In this document: one piece after another, positions 3,303 to 62,282 of the stretch
Position numbering within the stretch: position 1 is the first letter of the stretch
Layout of the letters: each line of letters starts with the position of its first letter
Source of the DNA: Cyanobacteriota bacterium
GTDB lineage: Bacteria > Cyanobacteriota > Cyanobacteriia > Cyanobacteriales > Microcoleaceae
Assembly (NCBI GenBank): GCA_034189005.1
Contig: JAXHVR010000009.1
Coordinates: forward strand, 11,413-75,412
Direction of reading: 5' to 3'
DNA length: 64,000 nt
Position numbers and translations under genes: made by a program
The notes under the pieces: model-generated
Databases searched by the model: none
Seen by the model: the letters and a program-made list of their open reading frames with translations, nothing else
What the model was told of the DNA's origin: nothing

Positions 3303-3323
3303 TAATTAATAATTAATAATTAA
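3291..3323. repeat. heptamer array (TAATAAT) containing the wzt stop
   Basis: Period-7 repeat. Confidence 0.9.
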
Positions 3324-3390
3324 GCGGATAACAGGCAAGATGCAATTAACAGATAACAGGCAAGATGCCTGTTCTACAATTAACCATAAA

Positions 3391-3502: not shown

Positions 3503-4633
3503 ATGATAGTTGAGGCGGACGAAAGGATAGTTAAAAGTTGGTTGGAAGAGCAAACTAGGTATCCTCAAGATTTTAAGACTAATATCTCGGAAGCTGATGA
3601 GATGTTTTTATATGCTTTGCAGAATTTGGGCGATCGCGATCGCGCTACTATTCGTTATTATTTCATCGGTAAAAGAATACTTGATGCGGTAAAACAAGTT
3701 CTTAATTGGCACTTTGAGAAAACACAAATATCCTCTTTTCTCGATTTTGCTTGCGGTTACGGTAGGTTTACTCGCTATTTAATTCAGGAGTTGCCCCCAG
3801 AGAAAGTTTGGGTAGCGGATATTTACGCCGAGGCGGTGAATTTTCAACGGGAATATTTGGGGGTTAATGGCATTGTTTCGACGGTTGAACCGGAAGACTT
3901 TTCCCTGGAAAATAAGTTTGATTGTATTTTAGCTTGTTCCTTTTTTAGTCATATTCCCGAGAGAAGATTTGCCAGTTGGATGCAAAAGTTGTACGATTTG
4001 TTAACAAATGTAGGGGTGTTAATGTTTAGCGTCCACGATGAGGCGCTTTTGCCTTCTAATGTGGAAATAGGAAGTGGGGGAATTTTGTTTTCCCCTGCCA
4101 GCGAAAGTCGGTTTTTGGATAAGGAGGAATACGGCACTACTTTTGTTAATGAAGCATTTGTTAGGAAAGTAGTAGCATCGGTAAGCGAAGGCCAAGCATT
4201 TATTTGCCGCATAAAAGAGGGTATTTGCGGGGCTCAAGATTTGTATTTAGTAAGCAAAAAACCTTTCAAAGATTTGGATAGTTTTAATTTTCGATACCAT
4301 CCTAAAGCTGGTTTGGAGTATTGTCAGGCGATCGCTGACGATCGTATCCGTTTGAAGGGCTGGGCGATCGATCTCAACCCACAGGGTAAAATAGATGATA
4401 TTTTAATTGTTGTCAATGGCCAAATAGTTGAAAAATGCCAGCCAAGCTATTCGCGACCAGATCTGGCTGAAAGATTTCCAAATTCTGAGTTATTGAATTG
4501 CGGTTGGTCTTGCGATTTTGCCACGGATAAAGTATCCTTGGATGATGTTATTTCTATTAAGGCAGTTAATAATTATGGCTTGGAATGGATTATGGAGGTT
4601 AATACTCTAAAACAATTAACAACTAACAATTAA
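3503..4633 (+). CDS. class I SAM-dependent methyltransferase with C-terminal GW/RPD beta-module
   Basis: Motif I LDFACGYGRFTRYL. The C-terminal ~100 aa (RLKGWAID...SRPDLAERFP...GW) recurs in other proteins of the locus. Confidence 0.8.
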   Translation: MIVEADERIVKSWLEEQTRYPQDFKTNISEADEMFLYALQNLGDRDRATIRYYFIGKRILDAVKQVLNWHFEKTQISSFLDFACGYGRFTRYLIQELPPEKVWVADIYAEAVNFQREYLGVNGIVSTVEPEDFSLENKFDCILACSFFSHIPERRFASWMQKLYDLLTNVGVLMFSVHDEALLPSNVEIGSGGILFSPASESRFLDKEEYGTTFVNEAFVRKVVASVSEGQAFICRIKEGICGAQDLYLVSKKPFKDLDSFNFRYHPKAGLEYCQAIADDRIRLKGWAIDLNPQGKIDDILIVVNGQIVEKCQPSYSRPDLAERFPNSELLNCGWSCDFATDKVSLDDVISIKAVNNYGLEWIMEVNTLKQLTTNN

Positions 4634-4658
4634 TAATTAACAATTAACAATTAACAAT
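4611..4658. repeat. heptamer array (CAATTAA/CAACTAA/TAATAAT mix) spanning a stop codon and ending at the next ATG
   Basis: Period-7 repeat between 3503..4633 and 4662..10895. Confidence 0.9.
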
Positions 4659-4661
4659 TTT

Positions 4662-10600: not shown

Positions 10601-10895
10601 AATAGAAAGTTATCCCCGAGTAATCTTAGAGGCAATGGCTTATAATTTGCCAATAGTTACGACTCCAGTTTTCGGCATTGTGGAACAAGTGAAACCGGGA
10701 ATTAACGGTTTGTTTTATACCCCAAACCAACCCGAAGAATTAGCCTCGCAGTTGATGATTTTATTGGAGGATGAAGAGTTAAGGTTGCGACTGGGAGATA
10801 ATGCGAAATATGTGTTGGATGCGTTGAATACTTTTGAAGAAATGACCGCAGCTTACAGTCAGATATTTTGCGAAGCGTATTTGAGTCGTTCGTAA
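4662..10895 (+). CDS. 2077-aa multidomain glycan assembly protein: sulfotransferase, ~430-aa coiled coil, 2x beta-module, GT2, GT2, GT4
   Basis: PAPS-type motifs GMHRSGTS and FRSPWEVVDSLYRR. 28-aa/7-aa repeats span nt ~5520-6810. GT2 signatures are VVMPVYNP..DDCSTD..LDNDDE and IIIPTKN..IDNESDD..LNNDTE. The C-terminal GT4-like part reads FVCTSRIESYPRVILEAMAYNLPIV. Confidence 0.85.
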   Translation: MNAKNSNSKNHKAFLISGMHRSGTSLTASLLQKAGINIGKKLVGPEYGNIKGHFENIDFVKYHQEILRSQNIDDLGSNLLDEQEIVIGEKEKKRGRQLIKKHQKGKDLWGWKDPRTTLFLDLWLELLPYANFIFIFRSPWEVVDSLYRRSTDENLVESPEVAVKMWQLYNRRILKFNQNLPDRCLIANVDKVGKNPEGFIKAINDKFNLNLTAPSEENFDESLLIKNIENTHRPWLIEKNYPQTLEIYRQLKAAAIEIEPADDGEEKISAPTSENWAFRDWFDVRSLEKQAQILELEALQLHKDVEDWHKLFEEAQERAIALEAALGETELKLDGKELKLQESSEKLEGLEAELGEAQTQLDGTKVKLLESQTKVATLERKLGQTQAQLDGTQVKLIDSQKKVLGLETDLGQTQARLEGSETRFQESLTKLVGLETKLGQTEVQLEGTKTKLHQSQKLLLGLETELGHAQIQLNTTQLKLEESQKKIQGLEKELGDTQLRLDGSQAQIKESQAKIGELEGELGETQQRLDGSQAQIKESQAKIGELEGELGQTQQRLDGSQGQIKESQAKIGELEGELGETQLRLDGSQNQLKQSQSKIGELEGELGQTQQRLNGTQVKLDESQGKIQVLETELGQTQQQLQGTQAQLGQTQAELTQTQTALGQTQSALSQTQTLLGETQTVLVQTEVTLGQTQAELIAQRQETQELREEILAMRSSKFWKLREKWFNFKRRLRGLRYCIRKASPTRFVFSLDTPTSWEISSPQLEVVGWCFAQGANLFNNNNGNLEVDAIRARIADRTFDGSYGIERLDVAQKHDHTPAAQNSGFQIQLELPPGRHQLVLEAKDRKDKWHSIASYPIIVSTVQANFDAPATFEQREGMVLFAGWCCHPEKKISKLTLRCGDVSIDCAYGLRRKDVAEAFPQWVGSLDSGFEATVELPPGEWPLILEATLDTGEIVGFQCQNSLKVRRYGVLDRAKDKRLELLQLGAAVRKRAAERKQRLGRIVPLPWELPRVARRVIEMYREQKSFGELSPPAGFLMPVSVEPYEAWLEVNKWGDRAFDRLTSRLEGAAADSLPKISVVMPVYNPPVEFLREAIASVTNQVYQNWELCIADDCSTDPEIRQILSELAADDPADDDRRTGVSPVPAESDDRRTGVSPVPADPRIKIKFREENGNISAATNTAASLATGDFILFLDNDDELTPDALAEVALYLAEHPETDFLYSDDDKIDTEGDRFDPQFKPEWSPELLLSFMYMGHLCAVRREIFEKVGGLRVGYEGSQDYDFALRATEVSRKVAHLPLILYHWRTAPGSTAVSGGEKPASFAAGRQAVQDALDRRGVSGKVDRPDWAIAENLGIFAPEFPQTGPSVTIIIPTKNQLHFIKGCLESLEKTSYQNYRVFVIDNESDDPKTLEYLEGVGGSPPAPLEKGGERKVGKAGEVRVLKIPNEGGKFNFAAINNRAVEQAETDYILFLNNDTEIITENWLSQMVGYAQLPGVGAVGAKLIYPDGRIQHAGIIHGLHHGLAGHAFKLMPSENRGYLSQAAVGRNYSAVTAACMLTHRELFLEMGGFDEEKFAVAYNDADYGYRLLEKGYRSVYCPEAELIHREGTSRGFVDNPREEAIFRRRYAEMVDKFYSPHFSLANELFEVQPRRYFLSPPTPLGKEEDRRTGILPVDDAEQETRFFGKTGFLGGRKITLLMCSNSLDFTGAPLHQYEIAVQLASEGIVKPIIFSPTEGPLRKVYEEKNIEVIVLDNPLEHIYQRDDYDAALESFAKEIEGLNADVIYANTLENFFLIDIAQMLNIPSVWNVHESEPWQTYFNRFGPEIATRALECFRYPYRIIFVADATRDKYLPLNSHHNFTAIHNGLDLELLKSSAKKWSPEEARAALGVNSDEIVLLILGTVCERKGQEDLVKAIPYIGAEWVGKIKCFIVGDRPSLYSSQLSALVAGLPEELKGRIEIVPETPDTAKYYQAADIFVCTSRIESYPRVILEAMAYNLPIVTTPVFGIVEQVKPGINGLFYTPNQPEELASQLMILLEDEELRLRLGDNAKYVLDALNTFEEMTAAYSQIFCEAYLSRS
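6158..6577 (+). repeat. five near-identical 84-bp (28-aa) tandem units inside the coiled-coil region
   Basis: GCGACTGGATGG recurs at 6158, 6242, 6326, 6410 and 6494, exactly 84 nt apart. The unit encodes LEGELGETQQRLDGSQAQIKESQAKIGE. Confidence 0.95.
6563..6752 (+). repeat. nine 21-bp (heptad) tandem units, consensus LGQTQxx
   Basis: CAAAC(T/C)CA(A/G)-type units every 21 nt; peptide LGQTQAE LTQTQTA LGQTQSA LSQTQTL LGETQTV. Confidence 0.9.
8064..8142 (+). repeat. two in-frame tandem copies (42-nt period) of the GTAGAACAGGCGTCTCGCCTGTT palindromic element inside a GT2 domain
   Basis: GACGACCGTAGAACAGGCGTCTCGCCTGTTCCAGCAG occurs at 8064 and 8106 and encodes DDRRTGVSPVPAES twice. Confidence 0.95.
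9654..9723 (+). repeat. in-frame GTAGAACAGGCATCTTGCCTGTT element plus AGAAACCCGG/CCGGGTTTCT hairpin in the GT2-GT4 linker
   Basis: Encodes RRTGILPV...ETRFFGKTGFL. Both elements also occur intergenically in the window. Confidence 0.95.
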
Positions 10896-11176: not shown

Positions 11177-11450
11177 CTTGGAAACACCAGAGATCTCAGA
11201 AACCGGGTTTCTCAATTAACTTCTCGCTTGAGAGGCAAAAGTTATGCGAGAAACCCGGTTTCTTGTGAGTTAAAAAACATCTTTTGCAACGTCCATCTAA
11301 CCATAGGTGGGGGAACTGCATTGCCGTAAAGAATATAGCGATAACGATCGCTCTCTTCCTCTTAGGTCGCGCTTCGCTTCTTCTTTGTATTCTACCATAC
11401 AGAAAAATTACCAAATGTTTGATAATTGTCTATGGTAAAAGGAGAGAAAA

Positions 11451-13580: not shown

Positions 13581-15017
13581 ATGGAAGAATCTATCTTAAT
13601 TTGGGGAGTGGCTTTAATTTTAGGCTTTCCTCTGGTCAGCCTTGTATTAGGAGAAGCGATCGATCGCTTAGAACGCGATCGCCATCCTTTAGCTAAATTC
13701 TTGGGCAATACTCGCACTTTAATTTTGCCACCTTTGGCAGTGTTGTTAGTAATGCAATTAATCCTCGATGTTACTGACGGTCTTTTTTTGCGAATAGTCG
13801 AGACGCTTTACTGGATCGCAGCAACGATAACCTGCTTATCTCTAGTAAATGGAGTCCTCACCACCAAAAGCAAAACCGCTGCTTGGCAATTACGACTACC
13901 AAATCTCTTTTTTCAAGTTGCGCGCGCCCTCGTAGTTTTAGCGATCGCTTCCTATCTTCTCGGAGGCATCTGGTCGATCGATCTCAGCAGAGTTGCCAGC
14001 GCCTTGGGAGTTGGTTCCTTAGTAATTGCCCTCGCCTTACAAGATACTCTCAGCAACCTAGTTTCTGGATTCTTGCTGCTATTTTCTAAACCTTTCGTCG
14101 TCGGCGACTGGATTAAATACGGAGATTACGAAGGTCGGGTTATCGACCTAAACTGGCGGGCGGTGACTATAGAAACTATTTTCAAAGTTCATATCGTCAT
14201 CCCCAACGGAGTTTTAGGGCAAGAAACCATCGTTAACTATTCCATGGAACCGGCCCGGTGGGACTCGATTCAAATAGGTTTCTCTTACGACCATCCCACC
14301 AACTACGTTATGGACGTCTTAAAAAGTTTGACAAAAGACATTAAAGATATCGCCACCGATCCCCCACCCTTTGCTTGCGTAGATGCCTACGACGATTTCG
14401 CCATCACCTATTCTTTATGGTTTTGGGTTCTACCAGAGAAGGCGTGGTTCGTTCAAAACGAACTCAAAGGCAGGATTTTCTATGCTGCGAAACGTCACGA
14501 CCTCAATATTCCCTTTCCCATCAGGACTTTGCATCACGTTAGGACTCCCAGCAGCGTCCCGGATGTTGGTATTGAGATTGCCGAATTTCTCCACTCGCTT
14601 CCGTATTTCACGTCTTTGGAAGAGTGGACGATCGCTTCTCTTGCTAGAACTGCGGACATCAAATATTATGGAAAAGGCGAGAGAATTGTTAAAGAAGGAG
14701 AATTCGATTTAGGTCTTTATATTATTGAAGAAGGGACGGTCAAGCTTTCAGTTACCGACGATCGCGATCGCCGTTCAGAAGTCGTCAGTCTGGGGCCGGG
14801 AGATTTCTTTGGAGAAATGGCACTCCTCCCAGGGGAAGCAAGTTTGGTATCCGTGACGGTTATTGAGGATTTGAAAGCTATTTTTATAGATAGCGTTTCC
14901 GCAATTAATTCGATCCAGGGAAATTCTAAGTTTATCGCCCAGATGAATAAATTCGTCGAACAGCGTACCGAAACCGTGACTTTGGTTAAAGGAAGCAAAG
15001 ATTTGTTAAATAATTAA
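13581..15017 (+). CDS. MscS-family mechanosensitive channel with C-terminal cyclic-nucleotide-binding domain (bCNG-type)
   Basis: MscS core LALQDTLSNLVSGFLLLFSKPFVVGDWI...VIPNG. The C-terminal CAP_ED-like part reads GERIVKEGE..LYIIEEGTV..GDFFGEMALL. Starts 7 nt after the cyclase-homology gene. Confidence 0.85.
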   Translation: MEESILIWGVALILGFPLVSLVLGEAIDRLERDRHPLAKFLGNTRTLILPPLAVLLVMQLILDVTDGLFLRIVETLYWIAATITCLSLVNGVLTTKSKTAAWQLRLPNLFFQVARALVVLAIASYLLGGIWSIDLSRVASALGVGSLVIALALQDTLSNLVSGFLLLFSKPFVVGDWIKYGDYEGRVIDLNWRAVTIETIFKVHIVIPNGVLGQETIVNYSMEPARWDSIQIGFSYDHPTNYVMDVLKSLTKDIKDIATDPPPFACVDAYDDFAITYSLWFWVLPEKAWFVQNELKGRIFYAAKRHDLNIPFPIRTLHHVRTPSSVPDVGIEIAEFLHSLPYFTSLEEWTIASLARTADIKYYGKGERIVKEGEFDLGLYIIEEGTVKLSVTDDRDRRSEVVSLGPGDFFGEMALLPGEASLVSVTVIEDLKAIFIDSVSAINSIQGNSKFIAQMNKFVEQRTETVTLVKGSKDLLNN

Positions 15018-15043
15018 TAATTAATAATTAATAATTAATAATT
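15008..15043. repeat. heptamer array (TAATAAT) containing the MscS-cNMP stop
   Basis: Period-7 repeat. Confidence 0.9.
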
Positions 15044-15054
15044 GTCCCAATTAT

Positions 15055-15141
15055 GATTATGAAAAATTAGGGGGCCAGAAACCCGGTTTCTCAAAGAAAC
15101 CGGGTTTCTAAAATATCGCGAACGATCTACGGCTTGCTATA
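15055..15141. mobile_element. TATAGCAA-family element, 5'-truncated copy
   Basis: GATTATGAAAAATTAGGGGGCCAGAAACCCGGTTTCTCAAAGAAACCGGGTTTCT...CGGCTTGCTATA. Confidence 0.8.
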
Positions 15142-16296: not shown

Positions 16297-16329
16297 CAAT
16301 TAATAATTAATAATTAATAATTAATAATT
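16297..16329. repeat. heptamer array (TAATAAT)
   Basis: Period-7 repeat just after the PstS-like gene. Confidence 0.9.
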
Positions 16330-16575: not shown

Positions 16576-17787
16576 ATGTTCAACCTCGACACTCCCCAAA
16601 CCAAGGAATTAAATTACTTAACCAAATTTGCCGGGTGGTATATTCCCGAGGAATCTATTCCAGTTGGGGGAGAAGTTAAACTACAAATTTATCTCAACGG
16701 CAAACCTCATGCAGCTTTATTGCATGGAGGCGATCGCCCCGACGTAGCCAAAGTTTTTCCCGACAAAAAAAACGCCGCAACTAGCGGTTTTTGGGGCGAA
16801 CTATTGCTGCCGGAAACTATTAAACCAGAATCAAATATAGAAATAGAAATAGTAGCAGAGGGCAACCCTACCAAATCTCTTTATAAAAATCAATTTAAAG
16901 TAATTGGTAAACCCAAAATATTCCCAGAAAGAGAGAGGATATTTAACCTCGAAGAAATGTTGAAATGTCCGAGTTGCGACAATCGAATTAAGAAACCGGG
17001 TTTATTTGAAAAACCCGGTTTCTGGAACCGAGATTCACTCACCAACAGGCAAGATGCCTGTTCTACGAATTCCTGCCAGCAAACAAATTGCCCCATCTGG
17101 AAAAGAGGCAATACCTTCCATTTTTTACAACCAGAAGAAGTACCCTTCACCAGACTAACAGAACCGCAAAACACCCATCCCTATTCCGAAAGCATTCTCA
17201 AAGTCTTAGAAAAAATCGGAGATAAAGGAATAGTATTAGACTTTGGTGCCGGCAACACCCAACCAGAATACCTAAAACCCAATATTTGCTATCTGGAAGT
17301 GCAGCAATATCCCTTCACAGATATCGTCTGTACCACTCCCAAACTACCCTTCGCAGACAACAGTTTTGATGGAGTCATAAGTCACGCAGTCTTCGAACAC
17401 ATTCCCAATCCTTTTATAACTGCAAAAGAACTTTTTAGAATTTTAAAACCTGGAGGATTAATATTTATCGACACCGCATTTTTACAACCATTTCACAGCG
17501 ACCCAAATCATTATTTCAACATGACAATTCAAGGCTTGCGGCAAATAATGTCGGACTTTGAAGAAATCAACAGCGGCATTTTAGAACATCATTATCCCTC
17601 TTATAGTTTAATGATGTTAATCAGAATAATTTGGCCCCATCTGGAACAAAAACAATGGAAAAATCGTTTGGCAGACTGGCACGCATTTTTAATCCAAGAA
17701 GGCGATAATCTCGATGAAATGTTAGGCGAAAAAGGCAGAGAAATCCTCGCAGCAGGCGTCTTTTTTGAAGGGCGAAAACCAATTTAG
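16576..17787 (+). CDS. GW/RPD beta-module fused to class I SAM methyltransferase (type 11)
   Basis: The N-terminus FAGWYIP...GDRPDVAKVFP...SGFWG matches the recurrent module. The C-terminus has VLDFGAGN..FDGVISHAVFEHIPNP..LKPGGLIFI. The linker contains in-frame palindromic repeats. Confidence 0.8.
   Translation: MFNLDTPQTKELNYLTKFAGWYIPEESIPVGGEVKLQIYLNGKPHAALLHGGDRPDVAKVFPDKKNAATSGFWGELLLPETIKPESNIEIEIVAEGNPTKSLYKNQFKVIGKPKIFPERERIFNLEEMLKCPSCDNRIKKPGLFEKPGFWNRDSLTNRQDACSTNSCQQTNCPIWKRGNTFHFLQPEEVPFTRLTEPQNTHPYSESILKVLEKIGDKGIVLDFGAGNTQPEYLKPNICYLEVQQYPFTDIVCTTPKLPFADNSFDGVISHAVFEHIPNPFITAKELFRILKPGGLIFIDTAFLQPFHSDPNHYFNMTIQGLRQIMSDFEEINSGILEHHYPSYSLMMLIRIIWPHLEQKQWKNRLADWHAFLIQEGDNLDEMLGEKGREILAAGVFFEGRKPI
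16991..17066 (+). repeat. in-frame AGAAACCGGG/CCCGGTTTCT hairpin plus AACAGGCAAGATGCCTGTTCTAC element in the module-MTase linker
   Basis: Encodes KKPGLFEKPGFW ... RQDACSTN. Confidence 0.95.
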
Positions 17788-24576: not shown

Positions 24577-24682
24577 TATAGCAATCCGCGCAGGGATTAT
24601 GAAAAATTAGGGGGCCAGAAACCCGGTTTCTTTGAGAAACCGGGTTTCTAAAATATCGAAGGGCGATCTACGGCTTGCTATA
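24577..24682. mobile_element. ~105-bp MITE-like element, TATAGCAA...TTGCTATA termini, central AGAAACCCGGTTTCT / AGAAACCGGGTTTCT hairpin
   Basis: Full-length copy. The same element is seen at 47779..47882 (inverted) and 59656..59954 (interrupted). Confidence 0.85.
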
Positions 24683-24685
24683 CTA

Positions 24686-24732
24686 CAATTGTTAATTGTT
24701 AATTGTTAATTATTAATTATTAATTATTAATT
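24686..24732. repeat. heptamer array (complement of CAATTAA/TAATAAT) containing the stop of minus-strand CDS 24720..25628
   Basis: Period-7 repeat. Confidence 0.9.
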
Positions 24733-25628
24733 GCTTCCTCTTCCTTTTCCTCAGCCTTGGCTTTATCCTCGGCAAAGGGTATTTGATTGCCAATCAAACT
24801 TAAGAAAGTAGTGCCAAAATGCTGAATTTCCAGAAAACTAGCGTCGCTAGCGGCTGTTTTATAAATTCTAAAGGTTTTCATAATTCCCAAAGTCGCCGCA
24901 CTTTCTAAAGGACCGATAAAGCTCGTATCCCGGTCTAAAAAATAAGGCTTGCTCGCCCATTCGGCCATCTGTTGTGCGTTTAAAAAATAACAGCCGGCAT
25001 GAGGATTGAGAGTGCGCTGGAAAGTAATTGGTTGTTCCATAATTTTGCCGCTTAATTGCGATCGCTCCCTAACATTTTGATAAGCTGCGGTTACTTTCGG
25101 GTTAAGGTCTCCATCAATATAAGCTTTCGGCACCGGCCCCAAAGGAGATATTTCATAACGGTTTGGTTGAAGTAAATTGCCACTCCCCGTATTATGGGTA
25201 AACCAATTTAATTTAACAAAAAACCAAGGGTCGTGTAATACTAAATCGTCTTCTAAATAACAGTAATAATCGTATTTACCGAGGCAAGATTTTAACACTG
25301 CCTGACATTCATAGCCTAAAAGCATCGGTTCGGCATTGGTGTTGTGGTGCATCAAAAAATTAGATGCTACGGGAATTTCTGATAACAAATGGAAGTTTTT
25401 AGTCGTACAAACAATAATATCCACTTCGTGACAGTGGGACTCGTTGGAAGCGATCGCTTCATATTTTCCAATATTAATTGCATATTGGGATTTACCATAC
25501 AAAGCCCGCAAAGCAGTCAAACAAGTAGTAAAAGCTATTCGGCGGGACTGAGGATCTTTGCGCAAAGAACCGTGTTTGCCGTCTCCTTCTGGATTAAAAA
25601 AATGAGCAATTGTAAATAATATTCGCAT
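24720..25628 (-). CDS. hypothetical protein, possible glycosyltransferase (YLEDD motif)
   Basis: ORF trimmed to the MRILFTIAHFF start, 8 nt after the stop of the upstream gene. DxD-like YCYLEDDLV. Ends ...EEAINN* in a heptamer array. Confidence 0.6.
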   Translation of the reverse strand: MRILFTIAHFFNPEGDGKHGSLRKDPQSRRIAFTTCLTALRALYGKSQYAINIGKYEAIASNESHCHEVDIIVCTTKNFHLLSEIPVASNFLMHHNTNAEPMLLGYECQAVLKSCLGKYDYYCYLEDDLVLHDPWFFVKLNWFTHNTGSGNLLQPNRYEISPLGPVPKAYIDGDLNPKVTAAYQNVRERSQLSGKIMEQPITFQRTLNPHAGCYFLNAQQMAEWASKPYFLDRDTSFIGPLESAATLGIMKTFRIYKTAASDASFLEIQHFGTTFLSLIGNQIPFAEDKAKAEEKEEEAINN

Positions 25629-27436: not shown

Positions 27437-27525
27437 CTAGTAGTTTGCGTGCAGGGATTATGATAAGATTTGGAGCCAGAAACCCGGTTTAAGAAACCGG
27501 GTTTCTTAAATATCGCAAATGATTA
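27437..27525. mobile_element. diverged TATAGCAA-family element
   Basis: GTTTGCGTGCAGGGATTATGATAAGATTTGGAGCCAGAAACCCGGTTTAAGAAACCGGGTTTCTTAAATATCGCAAATGA. Confidence 0.65.
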
Positions 27526-28100: not shown

Positions 28101-31100
28101 ATGAATTGCAAAGTTTGTCAATCTCAATCTCTTCCATTTGCCAGCGCTAAAATTTTAAACAGCAAATACAATATCCAATATTTTCAATGTCAAAACTGCG
28201 GTTTTATTCAAACTGAAGAACCTTACTGGTTAGGTGATGCTTATGCAAAAGCGATCGCCCCCAGCGATGAAGGTTTAATCTTTAGAAATTTGATGCTGGC
28301 GCAAATTACTAACAACATAATTAGTAACTTTTTTAGTCCCGAAGATAATTTCATAGATTTCGGCGGCGGTTACGGTTTGTTTGTGCGTTTAATGCGAGAC
28401 ATCCGCTACAACTTTTTCTGGCAAGATAAATATTGTCAAAATCTTTTCGCCGAGGGTTTTGAAGCCAAAGGCATTAGCTCTTATCAATTACTAACTGCTT
28501 TTGAAGTATTCGAGCATTTAGTCAATCCTTTGGAAGAAATAAAAGAACTCTTAAAATATTCCCCAAATATCCTCTTCAGCACCGAAATTATTCCACCAAA
28601 TAACCCAAAACCCGACGAGTGGCACTACTACGCCCTCAACGAAGGTCAACACATTTCTTTATATAGCCTTCAATCCTTATCAGTCTTAGCAGAAAAATTG
28701 GGCTTGAATCTCTACACCAATAATTCATCCATCCACCTGCTGACAAAAAAGAAAATATCTCAAGAATCTTTTGCAAAACAGTCTGAATATAACGCAGCAA
28801 AACTGAGACAATATTTGTGGCGATCGCGAGATTATCTAAAAACATTTGAACTCCTCAAAGCTACCGATAAAAAAACAAACATTCCCCAAACTCACTCCTT
28901 CGTCAGCCGGGAATTAGGAGTCAACGTCGCCGGTTTTGTTAAAGGAGAATTAGGCATAGGAGAAGGAGTAAGAGCAACAATTAGAGCCATAGAAACTACA
29001 GGCATTCCTTATGTCATTAATAACATCATCAGCACCCCCCACCGCAACTCAGATATTACCTATCAAGACAAATTTTCCCACGAAAATCCTTACCCCATAA
29101 ATATCTTTCAAGTCAACGCCCACGAAGTCAACACCTTTATGAAAAGAGGGGCGATCGAAAAATACTTTCCAGGGCGATATAATATCGGTTTTTGGGCGTG
29201 GGAACTTACTAAATTTCCCCCAGAATGGATGTCGGCTTTTGCACCGTTTAACGAAATTTGGGCTTACAGCAACTACTGCGTGGAATCAATTGCAGCGGTC
29301 TCGCCGATACCGGTTATTAAAATGATGCCCAGTATTTCTTTGCCGATGCCTTCTCTGGTCCGAGAAGATTTAAAATTGCCGCCAGATAAATTTATCTTTC
29401 TATTTATATTCGACTTTTTCAGCCATCTGGAACGAAAAAATCCCATCGCTACTATTAAAGCCTTCAAACAAGCTTTTGGGGAGAGTAACCCGGACGTTTT
29501 GTTAGTGATTAAATGTTCTAACTCGCAAAAATTTCCTGCCGATAGAGCGAGATTAATTGAAGCGATCGCCAACAGCCCATCTATTAAATTAATAGACGGT
29601 TATTTATCCAAAGATAAAATTAACGCCCTGCTCTATCACTGCAACTGTTATGTATCCCTGCATCGCGCCGAAGGCTTTGGTTTAACTATGTCGGAAGCCA
29701 TGTTTTATGGCAAACCAGTAATTGCTACTGGTTATTCTTCTAATATAGAATTTATGAACGTCGGCAATAGCTTTTTAGTCGATTACGAGAAAGTAGAAAT
29801 ATCTGGAAATTACGGACCTTACAAACGAGGAGATATTTGGGCAGAGCCCGGCGTCGAACATTGCGCCAATTTAATGCAATATGTTTTTAATAATTATCAA
29901 AAAGCCCAACAAGTAGGGGCGAGGGCAGCCAGGGAATTAAAGACTTTATTAAGCCCGGAGGCGATCGGGGAAAAAATTAAAAACCGTTTGGAATATATTG
30001 CTAAATTAACAGATAATTTCAGCAGCTTACCTCAACCGGGTTTAATCGCGCCATCCGGTTTTTCGTTATCCCAGAAACCCGGTTTTTTGAAAAAACCGGG
30101 TTTCTCGAAGGCAAAAAACCAACAGCCCTTAGTCAGTCTTTGCATCCCGACTTTTAATGGAGAAGCTTTTATTAAAGAAGCCCTTATAAGCGCTACTTCT
30201 CAGACATATCCAAATTTAGAAATAATCGTTGCCGACGACAGTTCCACCGATAGAACCGTCGAGATAGTCAGAGAATTTCAGCGAGAAAATCCCGCCGCTG
30301 ACTTGCGAATTATTCTGCATCGAAATTATGGTTTAGTCGGTAATTTAAACTTTTGCATCTCCCAGGGGCGAGGTAAATATATTAAGTTTTTATTTCAGGA
30401 TGACTTGTTGGCATCGAACTGCGTCGAGGAAATGGTTGAACTAGCAGAAAGCGATCGAGAAATAGGTTTAGTATTTTCTCCCCGGCGAGTGTTTTTAGAA
30501 CCTGGGGCCGAGTCGAATCAAACTTGTATGGCAGCATATCGAGGCACTCAAGATTTACATAAAGATTGGTCGAATTTAAAAACAGTTCAGTGGGGGAAAG
30601 AATTATTAATAGATGCTAATTGGATGATAGGTCGGTTGAATAAAATTGGCGAACCGACAACGGTTTTAATTCGCAAAGAAGTTTTTGATAAAGTAGGAGT
30701 TTTCGATCCTAGCCTGACTCAACTTTTAGATGTGGATATGTGGTTGAGAATTATGGGGAATTTTAAAATTGCTTTTGCGAAGGAAACTTTATCGCAACTG
30801 CGGGTCCATCCCCGCCAGCAAACTCAACTCAATCTAACTTCTGGGAAAAATACTGAAGATTATCAGCGGTTTTATCAGAAATTATTAGAGGATTCGACTT
30901 ATAGCTTTTTGAATCGGGAGCTTAAAGAAAAAGTAAGACGAAAATTAGGTATTAAATATGAATTGAATCTCTCCCAAATTTCAACTTTGGTTAAAGAGTA
31001 TCAAAAATCTCTGAGGAACGATTCCGCATTAATTAATCTGCGACAAGCTCGCTTGGAACTTGCGAAGAGATTGGTGCAACTCCCAGCAGAAGAGTTGAAA

Positions 31101-32780: not shown

Positions 32781-32909
32781 GCGATCGCTATGATTAAATC
32801 CTCTAATATTGGCCATATTCGGGTGGAACCTGAAGCATTTAAAAGCGTCACAGGGTTCTCAGGGAGAAGGCAGGGGGCGCGTTGCTCCGATAATATACAA
32901 AAATAGTTT

Positions 32910-32964
32910 AACAATTAACAACTAACAACTAACAACTAACAACTAACAATTAACAATTAACAAT
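32910..32964. repeat. heptamer array (CAACTAA/CAATTAA)
   Basis: Period-7 repeat upstream of the PPIase gene. Confidence 0.9.
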
Positions 32965-36887: not shown

Positions 36888-36890
36888 AAA

Positions 36891-37049
36891 GTTGTTAGTT
36901 GTCAGTTGTTAGTTGTCAGTGGTTAGTTGTCGATAGAGGATTAACGATTGACAATTAACAATTAACAATTAAGCGGATAACAGGCGAGACGCCTGTTCTA
37001 CTAACAATTAACGATTAACAATTAACGATTAACTATATTAACAACTAAC
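36891..37049. repeat. composite: GTTAGTT-type array, CAATTAA/CGATTAA arrays and one AACAGGCGAGACGCCTGTTCTAC element
   Basis: Fills the whole ABC-HlyD intergenic spacer. Confidence 0.9.
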
Positions 37050-39237: not shown

Positions 39238-39280
39238 TAGGTAATTGCTAGAGCAAGGGGCGCTGCCTCCGCACCTTGCA

Positions 39281-39430
39281 GGGTGCATCTCAATTTTGAA
39301 GAAAGCCAAAAATTAAACGCTTTTTGTTAGCGGTCAGTTGTTAGTTGTTAGTTGGACGGCTGACTACTAACTGCTAACAACTAACAAAAATTATTAATCT
39401 TTTGGTATTTTTACAAATATGAGATGCTCC
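39281..39430. mobile_element. MITE, GGGTGCATCTCA-TIR family, heptamer (GTTAGTT/AACTAAC) core, flanked by 9-bp direct repeat CACCTTGCA
   Basis: TIRs are GGGTGCATCTCA and TGAGATGCTCC. CACCTTGCA occurs at 39272-39280 and 39431-39439. Confidence 0.85.
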
Positions 39431-39567
39431 CACCTTGCATCCCAATTTTCCCGATGTTTTTTACCCCTGCCGTTTCTCCGGTGGGGGTATTTTTGTTGTA
39501 AACTATTGGCTATTAATTTAGCAACGGATGATGCTGGTGGATGTAACTATGGATGTTAGTTGTTAGT

Positions 39568-39664
39568 CGTAGATCGTTCGCGATATTGAAGACAAACCCG
39601 GTTTCTTTGAGAAACCGGGTTTCTGGCCTCCTAATTTTTCATAATCCCTGCACGGATTGCTATA
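39568..39664. mobile_element. TATAGCAA-family element, inverted, one end truncated
   Basis: CGTAGATCGTTCGCGATATT...GAAACCGGGTTTCTGGCCTCCTAATTTTTCATAATCCCTGCACGGATTGCTATA. Confidence 0.8.
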
Positions 39665-43507: not shown

Positions 43508-44382
43508 AAATATTATTAACAGGACTGGACGGACAATTAGGCAAACAATTGCAATCTTTCCTCGCACCTTTGGGGGATTTAACTACTGTAGGACGGGCAA
43601 CTTTAGACTTAGCAAATGCTGAGGATATTTATAAAGCGATCGAGGAAGTTAAGCCGGAAATAATTGTTAATGCGGCAGCTTATACTGCGGTTGACAAATC
43701 GGAAAGCGAAGTGGAATTAGCCACGGCAGTTAACGGTACGGCCCCAGGGATTTTAGCCGCCGAAGCTGAAAGGTTGGGGGCGACTTTAATTCATGTTTCG
43801 ACGGATTATGTATTTGATGGAACTCGAAGCGTTCCTTATTTGGAAAGCGATCCTACTAATCCCCTCGGTGCTTATGGCGCTTCTAAGTTAAAAGGTGAAG
43901 AAGCAATTGAGAAGACCAATGCCAAGTATGTTATTATCAGAACTGCTTGGGTTTATGGTGCTTATGGCAAGGGAAATTTTGTCAAAACTATGCTGAGATT
44001 GGGGAAAGAAAGGGAGGAATTGCGAGTAGTTTACGACCAAGTTGGAACTCCGACTTGGACGGGAGATTTGGCAGGGGCAATTAGTCAATTAATACCCCGT
44101 TTGAGTGGAGATAATTTGGGGATTTATCATTATACCAATAGCGGGGCTATTAGTTGGTACGATTTCGCGATCGCCATTTTTGAAGAAGCAGAAAAACTCG
44201 GTTTTCCTCTTAAGATTAAACGAGTGGTTCCTATTACTACTGCCGAATATCCAACACCGGCAAAACGCCCTGCTTATTCAGTATTAAATTGCGCCAAAAT
44301 TTCCCAAGTTCTCGAAACTTATCCGCCCCACTGGCGGGAAGGTCTCCGACAAATGTTGAAGGAGTTGGCAGAGATTTCGTAG
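43504..44382 (+). CDS. rfbD: dTDP-4-dehydrorhamnose reductase
   Basis: MKILLTGLDGQLG Rossmann start, STDYVFDG, YGASKLKGE. ATGA overlap with rfbC. The stop TAG lies within a GTAGAACAGG repeat. Confidence 0.93.
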   Translation: MKILLTGLDGQLGKQLQSFLAPLGDLTTVGRATLDLANAEDIYKAIEEVKPEIIVNAAAYTAVDKSESEVELATAVNGTAPGILAAEAERLGATLIHVSTDYVFDGTRSVPYLESDPTNPLGAYGASKLKGEEAIEKTNAKYVIIRTAWVYGAYGKGNFVKTMLRLGKEREELRVVYDQVGTPTWTGDLAGAISQLIPRLSGDNLGIYHYTNSGAISWYDFAIAIFEEAEKLGFPLKIKRVVPITTAEYPTPAKRPAYSVLNCAKISQVLETYPPHWREGLRQMLKELAEIS

Positions 44383-44518
44383 AACAGGCGTCTCGCCTGT
44401 TATCCGTAGAACAGGCGTCTCGCCTGTTTCCGTAGAACAGGCGTCTCGCCTGTTTCCGTAGAACAGGCGTCTCGCCTGTTATCCGTTACCGCTGGAACAG
44501 GCGAGACGCCTGTTCTAC
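44378..44518. repeat. array of four direct copies plus one inverted copy of GTAGAACAGGCGTCTCGCCTGTT
   Basis: 27-29-nt period with no unique spacers. The first copy contains the rfbD stop codon. Confidence 0.92.
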
Positions 44519-44530: not shown

Positions 44531-46309
44531 ATGTTAATGAAAGAAAAGCTAAATTGGGGATTTATTATCCCAACAATTATCGGATTTTTACTACCAGCAA
44601 TCTACGTTTTATATCTGATATCGCAAGCGGGGCATCTGCTCAATTTCGACTATTGGTGGATGATAAAAAATATCTACTCAATAGATGGCTTTTCGACAAA
44701 TCCTTTCGACTGGATGTTTCGCGCCAACGAACATTTTGTCCTAATTCCCGCTATTATTTACGCCCTCAATATTGTTATTACCAAAGGCTCAAATATTGGT
44801 CTGTGTTTGGCAACATTTTTATTAGCTGTAGTTCAAAGTGTTTTTTTAATTAAATTATTGCCAGAAAAGGTAACAGGGAATAGCAGGGTTCTGCGGTTAT
44901 TAATAATCTGTATTTCTCTATTTAACTTTACCCCCGCAGCCGCCCATAATTGGATGCGAGGTTATAGCGGCGTGCATTGGGTTATTGCTAATTTATTTGT
45001 TATTGCTTCTATTTATTGCCAGACAAAATTATTACAATCTAATCCTAACAAATGGGCAATTGCTAGCATCATCTTCGGCATTTTAGGCTGCATCAGTTAC
45101 AGCACTCCGCTAGCATTATGGCCGATATTATGTGCTGCTTCGCTTTTAATGCGGTTGCCAAGGCGGATTATTATTGCTTATTTTACCTGTACAATTTTAG
45201 TCGTAGGTACTTATTTTATTACCTACAAAACCCCCTCCCACCATCCATCTTTATCCCAAGTTAATCTTGTCGATACCCTCGCCTATATTCCTGTTTATTT
45301 AGGAGCAATTTTCAGTCATAATATTCCGGTTGCTTTAATAATTGGAACTTTCGGTTTAATTTTGGCGGCAGTTTTTCATCTTTATTGGTTATTATCAAAA
45401 CCGTTGAATAATATCGACTGGTTGCCGTGGTTGTCGATAATAATCTACAGTTTTGGAACGGCATTAATGGCAGCAATTAGTCGTTCTGGTTTTGGCATCG
45501 AACAAGCGATCGCCTCCCGTTACGCTACCCTCCCCGCCCTTTTTTGGTTGAGTCTAATCGTCTTAACAATTTTTAGGATAAACCAGACACAAATCTCCTC
45601 TATTTCCAAGGGGAAAATCTCAGAAACCCGGTTTTTTAAAAAAACCGGGTTTCTAGATCGGCTATTTAGAAAAAAGCAATATTTTCTAATACCAGTAGTC
45701 GCAGTGGTGACAGTTTTAACAATCTTAACCTACGGAGTCGGGGGCAAAACTGCGGAGGCGATCGCCCTAAGAGCAACCTATCAACCTTTAGTAGCATTAT
45801 CCGTACAACTTAATATCGCCGACCCCCTATTAATTCAGGAAAAAGTAGGCAACAGACCGGAAGCTTTTATTAGCTTATTAGATGCATTAAAAGCTCATAA
45901 TTTAGTGCCTTTTCATAAGAATATTAAAAATGATAATTTTTGCGTTCCATTAGGAATAAAAATTGATAGCAATCTATTAACAAACGAACCCCAAGAAAAC
46001 GTGCCCGGATATTTCGATCCCATAACCCAATATACCCCCGCAACAGCCAGAGTAAAAGGTTGGGTGGGGGAAAGCGACAAAATTAAATGTATTGCCATCC
46101 TCAACCAAGATAGAATAGTAAGAGGTTTTGGGATGTCTGGCTTTCCCCGCCCCGACGTAGCCGAAATTATGGGTTCCGAGTTTGAGTCATCGGGCTGGAA
46201 AGGATACATCGAAGCATCCCCAGACGATGTTTTAGCTGCCTACGTTTCCTTGAAAAACCGTCCCGGTTGGGTAGTATTGCGCGATAAGCGCAGTTTAATT
46301 AATAATTAA
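44531..46309 (+). CDS. polytopic membrane protein (GT-C-like?) with C-terminal GW/RPD beta-module
   Basis: About 12 hydrophobic segments. C-terminus reads ARVKGWVGE...FPRPDVAEIMG...SGWKG. An in-frame palindromic repeat encodes SETRFFKKTGFL. Ends ...LINN* in a heptamer array. Confidence 0.7.
   Translation: MLMKEKLNWGFIIPTIIGFLLPAIYVLYLISQAGHLLNFDYWWMIKNIYSIDGFSTNPFDWMFRANEHFVLIPAIIYALNIVITKGSNIGLCLATFLLAVVQSVFLIKLLPEKVTGNSRVLRLLIICISLFNFTPAAAHNWMRGYSGVHWVIANLFVIASIYCQTKLLQSNPNKWAIASIIFGILGCISYSTPLALWPILCAASLLMRLPRRIIIAYFTCTILVVGTYFITYKTPSHHPSLSQVNLVDTLAYIPVYLGAIFSHNIPVALIIGTFGLILAAVFHLYWLLSKPLNNIDWLPWLSIIIYSFGTALMAAISRSGFGIEQAIASRYATLPALFWLSLIVLTIFRINQTQISSISKGKISETRFFKKTGFLDRLFRKKQYFLIPVVAVVTVLTILTYGVGGKTAEAIALRATYQPLVALSVQLNIADPLLIQEKVGNRPEAFISLLDALKAHNLVPFHKNIKNDNFCVPLGIKIDSNLLTNEPQENVPGYFDPITQYTPATARVKGWVGESDKIKCIAILNQDRIVRGFGMSGFPRPDVAEIMGSEFESSGWKGYIEASPDDVLAAYVSLKNRPGWVVLRDKRSLINN
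45622..45654 (+). repeat. in-frame AGAAACCCGG-loop-CCGGGTTTCT hairpin in a loop of the membrane protein
   Basis: Encodes SETRFFKKTGFL. Confidence 0.95.
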
Positions 46310-46393
46310 TAATTAATAATTAATAATTAATTATCTAATTCAAAGGCCAACCAATAACCCAATTGTTAATTGTTAATTGTTAATTGTTAATTA
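46297..46393. repeat. TAATAAT array, 35-bp spacer, then inverted AATTGTT array, filling an intergenic spacer
   Basis: Period-7 repeats on both sides. Contains the stop of 44531..46309 and ends at the ATG at 46394. Confidence 0.9.
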
Positions 46394-47778: not shown

Positions 47779-47882
47779 TATAGCAAGCCTAAATCATTCG
47801 TGATATTTTAGAAACCCGGTTTCTTGAAGAAACCGGGTTTCTTGCCCCCAAATTTTTCAGAATCCCTGCACAGATTGCTATA
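47779..47882. mobile_element. TATAGCAA-family element, inverted orientation
   Basis: TATAGCAAGCC...GAAACCCGGTTTCTTGAAGAAACCGGGTTTC...CCCTGCACAGATTGCTATA. Confidence 0.85.
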
Positions 47883-51190: not shown

Positions 51191-51238
51191 TCTAATTAAC
51201 AATTAATAATTAATAATTAATAATTAACAATTGACAAT
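51191..51238. repeat. heptamer array (CAATTAA/TAATAAT)
   Basis: Period-7 repeat downstream of the malic enzyme gene. Confidence 0.9.
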
Positions 51239-51378
51239 TTAAGTCTAAGCCGCTCGTGGCAAGTTATCGGGCTTTTTGACTGTTTGAAAAATTTAAAAAC
51301 TATTTTAGCTTCCGTAGAAAAAAGCTATATATTACCCATAATAAATAATTAAAAGTAGCGGATAAAAATAAAAATAAA

Positions 51379-55447: not shown

Positions 55448-55872
55448 TAGAGTCAATTAGCAGCAGATGAAAACCGCTTAAGTTTTTCCCTTATTGCTTC
55501 TTGTTGCTAGTGAGGTTGGAAATTTTGGTAGCCATAGATAGTTGCTAGGCATAGTTTGCCAAATAGAACCACAAACAAACCCACTCTAGTTCGTTTAGTC
55601 CCTTTTAACTTTATTTAACTAGAGGCGAAAGCCTACAAAAAAGAAGCTACAAGGAAATTTTAGTAAGATAAACAGGAGAAAGCAGTAGAAAGGCACTGAC
55701 TGACTGACGGTAGTGTAAAAGTAAAGACTCAAGTAAAGTAAGAAATAGTAGCAGCCAAAATCCACCCAAAAATTAGCAAAAAAAGGCAATAAATCCTAAG
55801 CAGTAAACGCAAAATTCCCTGGAATGCCTCGTTCTGGAGAGAAAGGTAAACGAACAGGGGAAAGTTATTGAC

Positions 55873-55981
55873 GGGAGCATCTCATCGAAGCAAAAACGCT
55901 TTCTTACCTATTACCTATTACCTATTACCCATTACCAAAAAGCGTTAAATTCTTGGCTTTCTTCAAAATTGAGATGCACCC
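55873..55981. mobile_element. MITE of the same TIR family (opposite orientation), CCTATTA heptamer core, 9-bp TSD GTTATTGAC
   Basis: TIRs are GGGAGCATCTCA and TGAGATGCACCC. GTTATTGAC occurs at 55864-55872 and 55982-55990. The subterminal TTGAAGAAAGCCAA..AACGCTTTTT is shared with 39281. Confidence 0.9.
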
Positions 55982-56448
55982 GTTATTGACTAACAAAAAC
56001 CGATTTTTCGGCAATTAAACAAAAAAACAACAAAATTATAAAAGGTAGATTGTCTTCTTAATAACTAATACCGATATTTGAACCTATATTTCTCTTCATT
56101 CCTAGAAGGGAAAAAACATTATTTCCTATTTCTAATTTACCCAAAAATATCTGGGAAAAAATTAGGCAAAAATGAGGAAAAAAAATCTGAGTAGCTCCCT
56201 AGAGAGGCGCAAAACCTATTCCCAGAAACCGGGTTTATGATGGGGAAAATGCCGATACTTCGTTAAGAGAGCGTCAGAAGCCCGGTTTCGCAGGCGGGAA
56301 TTCTAGTGGATTTTAGCTATCTCAAGATGAAGAAACTATAAAGATCGCTATCTATTATAAAGAAAGGAAAATGACTGGAATGTAATATTTAGTAAAAACT
56401 TGCGAATCGGCAAAGTAAATATAGCTTGGTACTTTGAGGCAAGATTGG

Positions 56449-59655: not shown

Positions 59656-59954
59656 TATAGCAATCCGTGCAGGGATTATGAAAAATTAGGAGGCCAGAAA
59701 CCCGGTTTCTTTAACAATACCTTCGCCAAAATAAAAAATAGCATTCGTAGGTTGGGTGCAGCGTAGCGAAACCCAACACTCACGCCCCCCCGCATCCCAA
59801 AGGGTGGCCGTTCGGGTCTTTTCCTTATGTTGGGTTTCGCTCGTTGATGTTGGGTTGCGCTATCGCTCCACCCAACCTACAAGAAAATGGCGAAGGTATT
59901 CTTTAAGAAACCGGGTTTGTCTTCAATATCGCGAACGATCTACGGCTTGCTATA
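59656..59954. mobile_element. TATAGCAA-family element with a second ~190-bp palindromic element (59712..59904) inserted in its central loop
   Basis: The outer halves match 24577..24682. The inner element has arms AATACCTTCGCC/GGCGAAGGTATT, GTAGGTTGGGTG/CACCCAACCTAC and AGCGAAACCCAAC/GTTGGGTTTCGCT. Confidence 0.85.
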
Positions 59955-61232: not shown

Positions 61233-61494
61233 GGGTGCATCTCAGTTTTTAAGAAAACCAATAACTTACTCTTTTTTGTTTGTAGAACAGGCGTCTCGCC
61301 TGTTGGTCTCGCCTGTAACGTAGAACAGGCGTCTCGCCTGTTGGTCTCGCCTGTAACGTAGAACAGGCGTCTCGCCTGTTGGTCTCGCCTGTAACGTAGA
61401 ACAGGCGTCTCGCCTGTAACGTAGAACAGGCGTCTCGCCTGTTGGTTGGCAGAAAAAGTCTATTCGTAGATACGAGATGCGCTCGTAGATATTC
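61233..61494. mobile_element. degraded member of the GGGTGCATCTCA family carrying a 38-nt tandem array as core
   Basis: Left end GGGTGCATCTCAGTTTTTAAGAAAACC and right end GAGATGCGCTC. No TSD recognisable. Confidence 0.6.
61282..61446. repeat. tandem array, 38-nt unit GTAGAACAGGCGTCTCGCCTGTTGGTCTCGCCTGTAAC x3 plus two shorter units
   Basis: Units start at 61282, 61320, 61358, 61396 and 61421. Confidence 0.92.
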
Positions 61495-62210: not shown

Positions 62211-62282
62211 CAATAATTAATAATTAATAATTAATAATTAATAATTAACCATTCACAATTAATAATTAACCATTAATAATTA
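62211..62282. repeat. heptamer array (TAATAAT with variants) between the menG start and the response-regulator stop
   Basis: Period-7 repeat. Confidence 0.9.

Follow-up and report, generated by a model that had tools for sequence, protein, structure and literature searches.

A family of miniature inverted-repeat elements with central heptamer arrays in marine and benthic filamentous cyanobacteria

Prokaryotic Mutator-like elements, as outlined by Guerillot et al. 2014 (PMC3942029), have inverted repeats of 18-39 bp with a conserved terminal base and direct repeats (DRs) of 8 or 9 bp. One of their families, ISKra4 (p-MULT 4 in the same outline), resembles in several ways a small repeated element that is present in three copies in a 64,000-nucleotide stretch of cyanobacterial DNA (contig JAXHVR010000009.1, Microcoleaceae; the whole stretch is called the window below, and its G+C content is 42.6%). 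Like insertion sequences (ISs) of the ISKra4 family, for example ISCasp2 and ISCasp3 of Calothrix PCC 6303 and an IS of Pseudanabaena galeata, the element starts with GGGTGC, has imperfect inverted repeats that are tens of nucleotides long, is flanked by target-site duplications (TSDs) of 8 or 9 bp and occurs in cyanobacterial hosts. Unlike these ISs, it carries no transposase gene, measures 90-160 bp rather than 1.4-1.8 kb, has ends that diverge past position 6 (ATCTCAATTTTGAAG, compared with GGCTCTTTTAGAAG or GACCTTGACATAAT) and shows no promoter-linked target preference.

Non-coding elements of similar size have been described in other bacteria. In the published summaries (for Nezha, Zhou et al. 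2008 in the summary of Delihas 2011, PMC3184786; for Anabaena sp. 90, PMC3542288), Nezha and the Anabaena sp. 90 miniature transposable elements with inverted repeats (MITEs) resemble the present element in being small, non-coding and intergenic, with terminal inverted repeats (TIRs) and flanking direct repeats, and also in their stable predicted hairpins, in sites that are filled or empty among relatives, and in a presumed partner IS that is not in the same genome. However, their hosts are Nostocales and not Okeania-related marine or benthic cyanobacteria, the partner of Nezha is ISNpu3-like, and the summaries, which allow comparison by description only, mention no heptamer core. BrickBuilt of Porphyromonas gingivalis (Klein et al. 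2015, PMC4596501) likewise has a tandem-repeat body between leader and tail segments with small inverted-repeat ends, is always intergenic, and varies in repeat number from copy to copy. It differs from the present element in its repeat unit (23 nt rather than 7 nt), phylum and unrelated ends, and promoter activity has been demonstrated for BrickBuilt alone.

Tandem heptanucleotides of cyanobacteria (STRR) were reportedly first found in Calothrix PCC 7601. Heptamer arrays with the units GGGAATC and GGGGA(T/C)T, already recorded in Nostoc and Xanthomonas (Rehm et al. 2015, PMC4692102), resemble the cores of the present element in being intergenic, in having period 7 and in forming inverted array pairs; the G-rich units GGGAATA and GGGAACA of Okeania and Dapis are very close to the GGGAATC of Xanthomonas. 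Those repeats were generally not found associated with mobile elements (PMC4692102), whereas the subset described here lies at a fixed position inside a transposed element. The family thereby offers one concrete case of cyanobacterial heptamer repeats that ride a mobile element, which the earlier study did not find. REP and REPIN sequences, which RAYT-type transposases move, are short palindromes headed by GTAG or CGTC, without TSDs or long TIRs, and differ from the present element in both of the latter respects. A REP-like form was seen only in an array nested in the third copy (GTAGAACAGGCG TCT CGCCTGTT, with an 8-bp stem).

We found no description of this family in the literature, and its TIR string appears in no relevant paper. 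For a repeat of many Okeania, Dapis and related genomes, this report provides a named anatomy (arms, 8/9-bp TSD and a fixed array slot) and a candidate transposase family.

Copies, family size and target-site duplications

The window contains two intact copies (39281-39431 and 55873-55981) and a degraded one (61233-61484), with the 12-nt TIR GGGTGCATCTCA / GGGAGCATCTCA in common. Their features are as follows.

39273-39280, no strand: copy 1, left TSD ACCTTGCA; base 39272 (C) matches too, so that a 9-bp reading is possible
39281-39326, + strand: copy 1, long left arm, with TIR GGGTGCATCTCA (39281-39292) and then conserved subterminal ATTTTGAAGAAAGCCAAAAATTAAACGCTTTTTG; arm profile E = 1.5e-16
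39324-39387, no strand: copy 1, core of (TTGTTAG)n and then its inverted complement (CTAACAA)n, the predicted tip of a whole-element hairpin
39396-39431, + strand: copy 1, right arm, with terminal TIR TGAGATGCTCCC (39420-39431); pairs imperfectly with the left arm over 32 nt (inverted repeat, 75% complementarity)
39432-39439, no strand: copy 1, right TSD ACCTTGCA
55864-55872, no strand: copy 2, TSD GTTATTGAC of 9 bp, left-hand on the + strand
55873-55903, - strand: copy 2, short arm, which is the right one in the orientation of the element; TIR GGGAGCATCTCA at 55873-55884
55904-55936, no strand: copy 2, core with TTACCTA repeated 4.7 times (GGTAATA/GGTAATG when read on the element strand); the fold prediction leaves it unpaired
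55935-55981, - strand: copy 2, long arm, which is the left one in the orientation of the element; TIR GGGTGCATCTCA at 55970-55981, - strand; arm profile E = 1.3e-17
55982-55990, no strand: copy 2, right-hand TSD GTTATTGAC
61233-61280, + strand: copy 3, left arm, with an exact TIR and a diverged subterminal part; arm profile E = 7.8e-12
61282-61443, + strand: copy 3, core of tandem GTAG-headed hairpin units GTAGAACAGGCGTCTCGCCTGTT with 38-nt and 25-nt periods
61449-61484, + strand: copy 3, degraded right arm with the end CGAGATGCGCTC (9/12 to the TIR) and no flanking duplication; weak profile match, E = 3.3

An initial annotation of the window, made from the sequence alone, had proposed that these copies belong to a transposed MITE family with clean 9-bp TSDs and a swappable core. 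The common ends that it reported are present. The 12-nt TIR occurs exactly or with one mismatch at 39281-39292(+), 39420-39431(-), 55873-55884(+), 55970-55981(-) and 61233-61244(+), and the subterminal TTGAAGAAAGCCAA is exact in copy 1 (39296) and in copy 2 (55953, - strand). In a three-copy alignment, about 46 nt of the left arm can be aligned between copies 1 and 2, the arm of copy 3 is more diverged, and the DNA between the arms is wholly dissimilar. Searched with arm profiles built from the whole family, the window gave these three copies only. Tandem Repeats Finder reported period-7 arrays at 39324-39354 and 39366-39387, which are mutually inverted, and at 55904-55936. The third copy had been placed at 61233-61494. 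The copy itself and its 38-nt array are real (61282-61417, 3.6 copies, 100% matches in Tandem Repeats Finder), but its end lies at about 61484, and no TSD was found in its flanks.

Exact direct 9-mers do flank both intact copies (CACCTTGCA at 39272-39280 and 39431-39439; GTTATTGAC as listed). However, base 39431 (C) is both the first base of the right-hand 9-mer and the last base of the copy 1 TIR. Because this base belongs to the TIR under family-wide boundaries, the duplication of copy 1 is best read as 8 bp.

We scanned a collection of species-representative genomes with the first 24 nt of the element, leaving two positions free. The scan returned 75 loci in more than 20 assemblies, every one of them from marine or benthic filamentous cyanobacteria. 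Carriers include Okeania (several metagenome-assembled genomes (MAGs), O. hirsuta and strain KiyG1), three strains of Dapis, a MAG labelled Trichodesmium, an uncultured Microcoleaceae MAG and further MAGs. Pairing of ends in these loci and in the window gave 86 copies with the same ends. Exact TSDs flank 39 of the 86, and all 39 sequences are different: 33 are 8 bp long, four are 9 bp and two are 7 bp. The norm for the family is thus 8 bp, with copy 2 among the rare 9-bp cases, and the proposal of clean 9-bp duplications holds for the matching 9-mers and not for the family.

As a control, the left 8-mer of each copy was compared with 8-mers at shifted positions on the right side. There were 33 matches at offset 0, five at +1 (the 9-bp cases) and two in total over 26 other offsets. 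Given the distinct sequences and the clean offset control, the duplications are target DNA and not part of a longer conserved unit; the initial annotation had named the latter as an outcome that would refute its proposal. Flanks beyond the TSDs are mutually unrelated. Target sites are AT-rich (68% A+T) without a consensus at any position, and across 33 aligned sites no position within 30 nt on either side of the duplication exceeds 0.3 bits of information.

Elements with both ends range from 65 to 401 bp, most of them from 100 to 160 bp, lengths at which no transposase could be encoded. In copy 1 the inverted repeat continues, imperfectly, over 32 nt. Okeania also has a composite form of 215-219 bp, in which a normal copy is extended by a segment of 107 nt, which begins CAAAAATCAGGA, and by a second right end. 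This form has been inserted whole at no fewer than three sites, which have separate 8-bp TSDs (L035:1283-1499, L043:237-451 and L061:55-273; numbers with L are our locus labels). With their small size, TIRs, differing TSDs and dispersed copies, these elements have the structure of MITEs. They are a family of non-autonomous DNA transposons of a kind already known.

In a census of prokaryotic MITEs (PMC11602168), Okeania KiyG1 and O. hirsuta had the highest MITE "diversity" of all prokaryotes. Because both genomes carry the present family, it was probably counted there in bulk. Variable cores on constant arms could inflate such diversity counts.

Syntenic loci in relatives, which we reached through relatives of NusA, differ in occupancy. 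A sister strain (L076, 98.6% identical over 4.7 kb) has copy 2 at the same site and with the same flank, and the interior of its heptamer array differs. Two more distant relatives (L077 and L078, 82-89% identical) lack copies 2 and 3, and at the site of copy 3 both have an (AATTAAC)n array. L077 has a copy of its own 60 nt further on (L077:12146-12255, TSD CCTATATT), where the window has none, and L078 has one upstream of a malic-enzyme gene, again without a counterpart in the window. The comparison of sister strains that had been suggested as a check therefore supports mobility through missing copies, although it yielded no base-perfect empty site in the relatives without copies 2 and 3, because their flanks have diverged or another heptamer array occupies the spot.

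Opposite the L077 copy, the window has ACCGATATT-TGA-ACCTATATT at 56070-56090, that is, two target copies 3-4 nt apart. This arrangement resembles the scar that a lost copy would leave after excision or deletion.

Central heptamer arrays

The contrast between constant arms and a variable core, first noticed in the window, extends through the family, with different heptamers, other inserts or, in copy 3, the array of GTAG-headed hairpins. Among the 86 copies, the core has period 7 in 55 and period 8 in three, no other period from 5 to 12 occurs, and 28 copies are without a scorable array. The array always starts immediately behind ...GCTTTT(T/A)G, at long-arm position 46-48. Its units are GGGAATA or GGGAACA mostly in Okeania, Dapis and the Trichodesmium-labelled MAG, and CTAATTG, TCAATTG, TTAGTTG, GTAATAG and GCAACAG in the MAGs closest to the window. 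In one MAG, subfamilies share a heptamer type across different sites with copy numbers from 4.6 to 17.7; the array is therefore copied with the element and then changes length. The unit types form a chain of single-base steps (GGAATAG, GTAATAG, CTAATTG, TCAATTG, TTAGTTG), and all have A as the third and G as the seventh base. Such a chain would fit divergence of one inherited array better than the exchange of cassettes implied by the term swappable. Independent copies derived from one master could be used to gauge the rates at which heptamer arrays expand, contract and change their unit.

Several subfamilies have an array followed by its inverted complement, which makes the whole element a long hairpin. 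Copy 1 is an example, and its predicted DNA fold as a whole element has z = -7.1. The description of the family as a hairpin element applies to such copies and is not general: the predicted fold of copy 2 has z = -3.4 with the array unpaired, and that of the L077 copy has z = -0.6.

The central slot also holds unrelated inserts (L033, L053 and L073). In copy 3 it holds the tandem GTAGAACAGGCGTCTCGCCTGTT units, which belong to a distinct repeat family found at about 17 places in the window. It is conceivable, but in our estimate quite unlikely, that the slot is a place where heptamer arrays, and other small repeats such as the GTAG-headed hairpins of copy 3, enter or grow preferentially. If so, the family would provide natural, datable reporters of the process by which 7-nt repeats come to fill the intergenic DNA of cyanobacteria. 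In a stronger version of the same idea, decayed copies may seed some free-standing arrays, or (GGGAAYA)n cores may be mobile regulatory G-quadruplex modules.

The GTAG-headed hairpin unit GTAGAACAGGCG TCT CGCCTGTT occurs about 17 times in the window (0.03 expected), often in tandem and in or next to heptamer arrays. Its sites are 8063-8143, 36975-37001, 44378-44514 and 61282-61443, with variants at 3355, 9659, 17044 and 41188; some units lie inside an open reading frame (ORF) of 2077 aa (4662-10895). The unit looks like a REP-type repeat.

The initial annotation had also suggested that the short tandem arrays of this genome travel, at least partly, as cargo of the element. We counted tandem arrays with at least three copies over 597 kb (the window and the 75 loci). 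Period 7 accounts for 321 of 449 arrays (71%). When the index copies that define the loci are excluded, 236 of 242 period-7 arrays are free and six lie in other copies of the family; about 2-10% of period-7 arrays are inside the MITE. None of 17 free-standing heptamer arrays in the window has arm similarity, with scores of 7-14 compared with a control mean of 10.4 and with 42-46 for the two MITE cores. Free arrays do use some of the units found in MITE cores, for example AATAGGG and AACAATT. Heptamer arrays are therefore a genome-wide property of these cyanobacteria, of which the MITE core is a small instance and not the source. The cargo suggestion is correct only marginally, and the present family leaves the bulk of the arrays unexplained.

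AT-rich heptamer arrays (AATTAAT, AACAATT and relatives) are located at or across many ORF ends in the window. Examples are 1693-1728, 3290-3323, 4611-4659, 15009-15043, 16298-16329, 24687-24733, 32908-32964, 36890-37049, 46296-46392, 51194-51239 and 62212-62282. In an array of 7-nt units that contain TAA, each of the three frames meets a stop codon, an effect that might, speculatively, matter at gene ends.

Candidate transposase and alternative explanations

Our preferred explanation, to which we assign a probability of about 0.72, is that the MITE family is moved in trans by an ISKra4-type transposase and that the core array is ancestral and copied with the element. Each copy consists of two imperfect inverted arms of about 30-46 nt that end in GGGTGCATCTCA and enclose a heptamer microsatellite. 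The mobiliser would most likely be a DDE transposase of the ISKra4 family of prokaryotic Mutator-like elements, which would bind the GGGTGC-type ends and make staggered cuts 8 nt, occasionally 9 nt, apart. In this way the element would have spread among related filamentous cyanobacteria of marine and benthic habitats. The ancestral element probably already had the central array, which is copied along with it. After insertion, slippage and point mutation would alter its copy number and unit, as presumably also happens in free-standing heptamer arrays, and the central position also accepts other inserts, such as the hairpin-unit array of copy 3.

The assignment to ISKra4 is drawn from the ends and the TSD length. 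Table S1 of Guerillot et al. (PMC3942029) gives the following ends for the ISKra4 group.

ISCasp3: end GGGTGCGGCTCTTTTAGAAG; DR 9
ISCasp2: end GGGTGCGACTCTTTTAGTAG (starts GGGTGCGACTC...); DR 9
ISBeg3: end GGGTGCAGTCG... (GGGTGCAG...); DR 0
ISAcce1: end GGGTGCATTTAATTT... (GGGTGCATTT...); DR 9

On plasmid NC_019752.1 we confirmed the ends of ISCasp3 and its 9-bp TSD, and five further ISCasp3 relatives (from Moorena, marine MAGs and metagenomes) have GGGTGCGGCTC ends. We also measured the boundaries of three small ISKra4-family ISs, which their records do not annotate; all three ISs have GGG termini, and two of the three have GGGTGC. One, of 1378 bp, is on plasmids of Pseudanabaena galeata CCNP1313 (L096:1002-2379 and L097:1002-2379), has the ends GGGTGCGACCTTGACATAAT / GGGTGCGACCTCAATACAAT, and is flanked by 8-bp TSDs at two independent sites (CCCAGAGA and GATCGGTA). 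A plasmid relative of 1389 bp in Kovacikia minuta (L098:313-1701) has an 8-bp TSD, and one of 1385 bp in Thiodictyon syntrophicum (L099:324-1708) has GGGTGCGGCC ends and a 9-bp TSD.

The first six nucleotides, GGGTGC, are common to the MITE and most members examined, and no member agrees at more than about 12/15 positions. Among 15 examined elements of the ISKra4 and small groups, 13 have a GGGTGC terminus (ISAcas3 has GGGCGT and Kovacikia GGGTTT), which is absent from the ISAzba1-group ends of the same table. When the 27-nt MITE end was compared, with gaps allowed, against its own shuffles, it scored above them for 9 of 10 ISKra4-group ends (P <0.0005 to 0.03) and, weakly, for one of three ISAzba1-group ends (P = 0.04). 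Because ISKra4-family ISs combine a GGGTGC terminus with 8/9-bp TSDs, this family is the best-supported assignment for the source of the transposase.

Several results weigh against this explanation. No autonomous IS with GGGTGCATCTCA ends appeared in the genome scan, the tblastn searches of loci, the metagenome scan, plasmids or viral contigs, and the transposase gene bounded by the same TIRs that the initial annotation had envisaged was thus not found. In tblastn searches, the N-termini of ISCasp2, ISCasp3 and ISBeg3, full-length ISCasp3 (WP_015201118.1) and the Pseudanabaena transposase (WP_281005336.1) had no match in the window, the 75 MITE loci or the syntenic loci L076-L081, a sample of about 0.65 Mb that speaks for those loci and not for whole genomes. 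Genome-scan pattern matches with visible downstream sequence were all MITE-like. A metagenome scan for GCATCTCA followed by a 250-280 nt gap and the motif GVIEGAC gave one chance match, rejected as a GC-rich ISKra4 element with its own GGGTGCGGCTC end. BLAST searches of plasmids with the arms gave chance matches only, and the viral scan gave nothing. The ISCasp3-type ISs, whose ends share more sequence with the MITE than those of other ISs do, make 9-bp TSDs, whereas those of the MITE are mostly 8 bp, and the likeness of the ends past GGGTGC requires gaps. Finally, insertion at a set distance upstream of sigma-A promoters has been reported for ISKra4-group ISs (this applies to one group and not to the whole family); promoter targeting by the MITE was rejected, as no position-specific signal was found around 33 sites.

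Other candidates for an autonomous partner were also set aside. Pairs of family ends 600-6000 bp apart enclose host genes and no transposases. A generic search for TSDs with TIRs over 0.67 Mb returned mostly heptamer-array noise and no transposase between family ends, and a protein search with an 86-aa N-terminal fragment returned fragments only. A search with the full-length ISCasp3 transposase found 120 close relatives, none of them named from a carrier genus, and those sampled have GGGTGCGGCTC ends.

TSDs of 8 bp are made by more than one IS family. The MITE might be mobilised by another family with 8-bp TSDs and G-rich ends (IS256 proper, ISL3, IS1595, IS6 and others), with the GGGTGC likeness coincidental or convergent. 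That no cognate ISKra4-type element with exact ends turned up in any collection searched, and that ungapped sharing with ISKra4 ends stops after six nucleotides, would suit this alternative. We consider it unlikely, given the prevalence of GGGTGC among ISKra4- and small-group elements and its absence from ISAzba1-group ends (the comparison covers the ends of these groups), the end similarity that exceeds shuffles in nearly all ISKra4-group comparisons, and the mixture of 8- and 9-bp TSDs, which is the pattern of small ISKra4-family ISs. Far less probable is the proposal that the sequences are not mobile DNA at all, and represent a conserved structured RNA or regulatory hairpin (a terminator, attenuator or small RNA) whose flanking repeats belong to a longer conserved unit. 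Copy 1, which has a single long predicted hairpin and lies in a 3' untranslated region shortly before an intrinsic-terminator-like site (39462-39489), could be taken in this sense. Yet the fold is weak in other copies, as in L077, no promoter- or terminator-like site lies inside the copies, and Rfam has no match in the window. As an alternative to mobility the proposal is already refuted by the 39 distinct TSDs, together with their unrelated flanks and the differing occupancy of sister genomes.

The origin of the core can be questioned separately, whichever transposase moves the element. A genome-wide heptamer process might make or insert an array at the element centre after each insertion, for example on hairpin tips or AT-rich spacers, so that arrays would not be inherited. 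The dominance of period 7 over the 597 kb, the 236 of 242 arrays outside the MITE, the units that free arrays partly share with cores, the unrelated sequence taken up by the centre in copy 3, L033, L053 and L073, and the 28 copies without a scorable array are all compatible with such a process. However, the fixed start of the array and the heptamer types shared across sites by subfamilies within a MAG are what copying of the array together with the element predicts, and the unit types are joined by single-base changes and agree in A at their third and G at their seventh position. We therefore regard insertion after the fact as improbable, and slippage within an inherited array as the better candidate for the source of core diversity.

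Genomic context and other small repeats

Copy 1 lies in a 3' untranslated region, 44 nt past the stop codon of an HlyD-like gene and 31 nt before the intrinsic-terminator-like hairpin at 39462-39489. Copy 2 is in an operon spacer between nusA/ylxR and infB. Copy 3 is in the interval from ubiE to a DUF445 gene, with a promoter-like site upstream of it, and lies between this candidate promoter and a start codon. A search for promoter- or terminator-like sites inside the three copies found none, and we saw no evidence pointing to a host function of the copies.

The DNA to the right of copy 1 (39436-39449, TGCATCCCAATTTT) matches the left end of the same copy (39284-39297, TGCATCTCAATTTT) at 13/14 positions. 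Judging from this match, copy 1 may have inserted into the remnant of an older copy. As a general rule, insertion into end-like sequence was rejected, as the other sites show no enrichment for such sequence.

A third small repeat family in the window is the 13-nt palindrome GAAACCCGGTTTC, with about 20 sites and 36 strand matches (0.09 expected), usually in pairs about 18 nt apart. It is found at 9693-9723, 11199-11262, 15078-15108, 16992-17022, 24618-24648, 27479-27505, 30074-30104, 39593-39623, 45623-45653, 47811-47841, 56225-56289 and 59697-59919.

The 2077-aa ORF at 4662-10895 also contains an 84-nt tandem repeat (6158-6542, 4.6 copies, 84% matches). Because 84 nt correspond to 28 codons in frame, this is probably a protein repeat.

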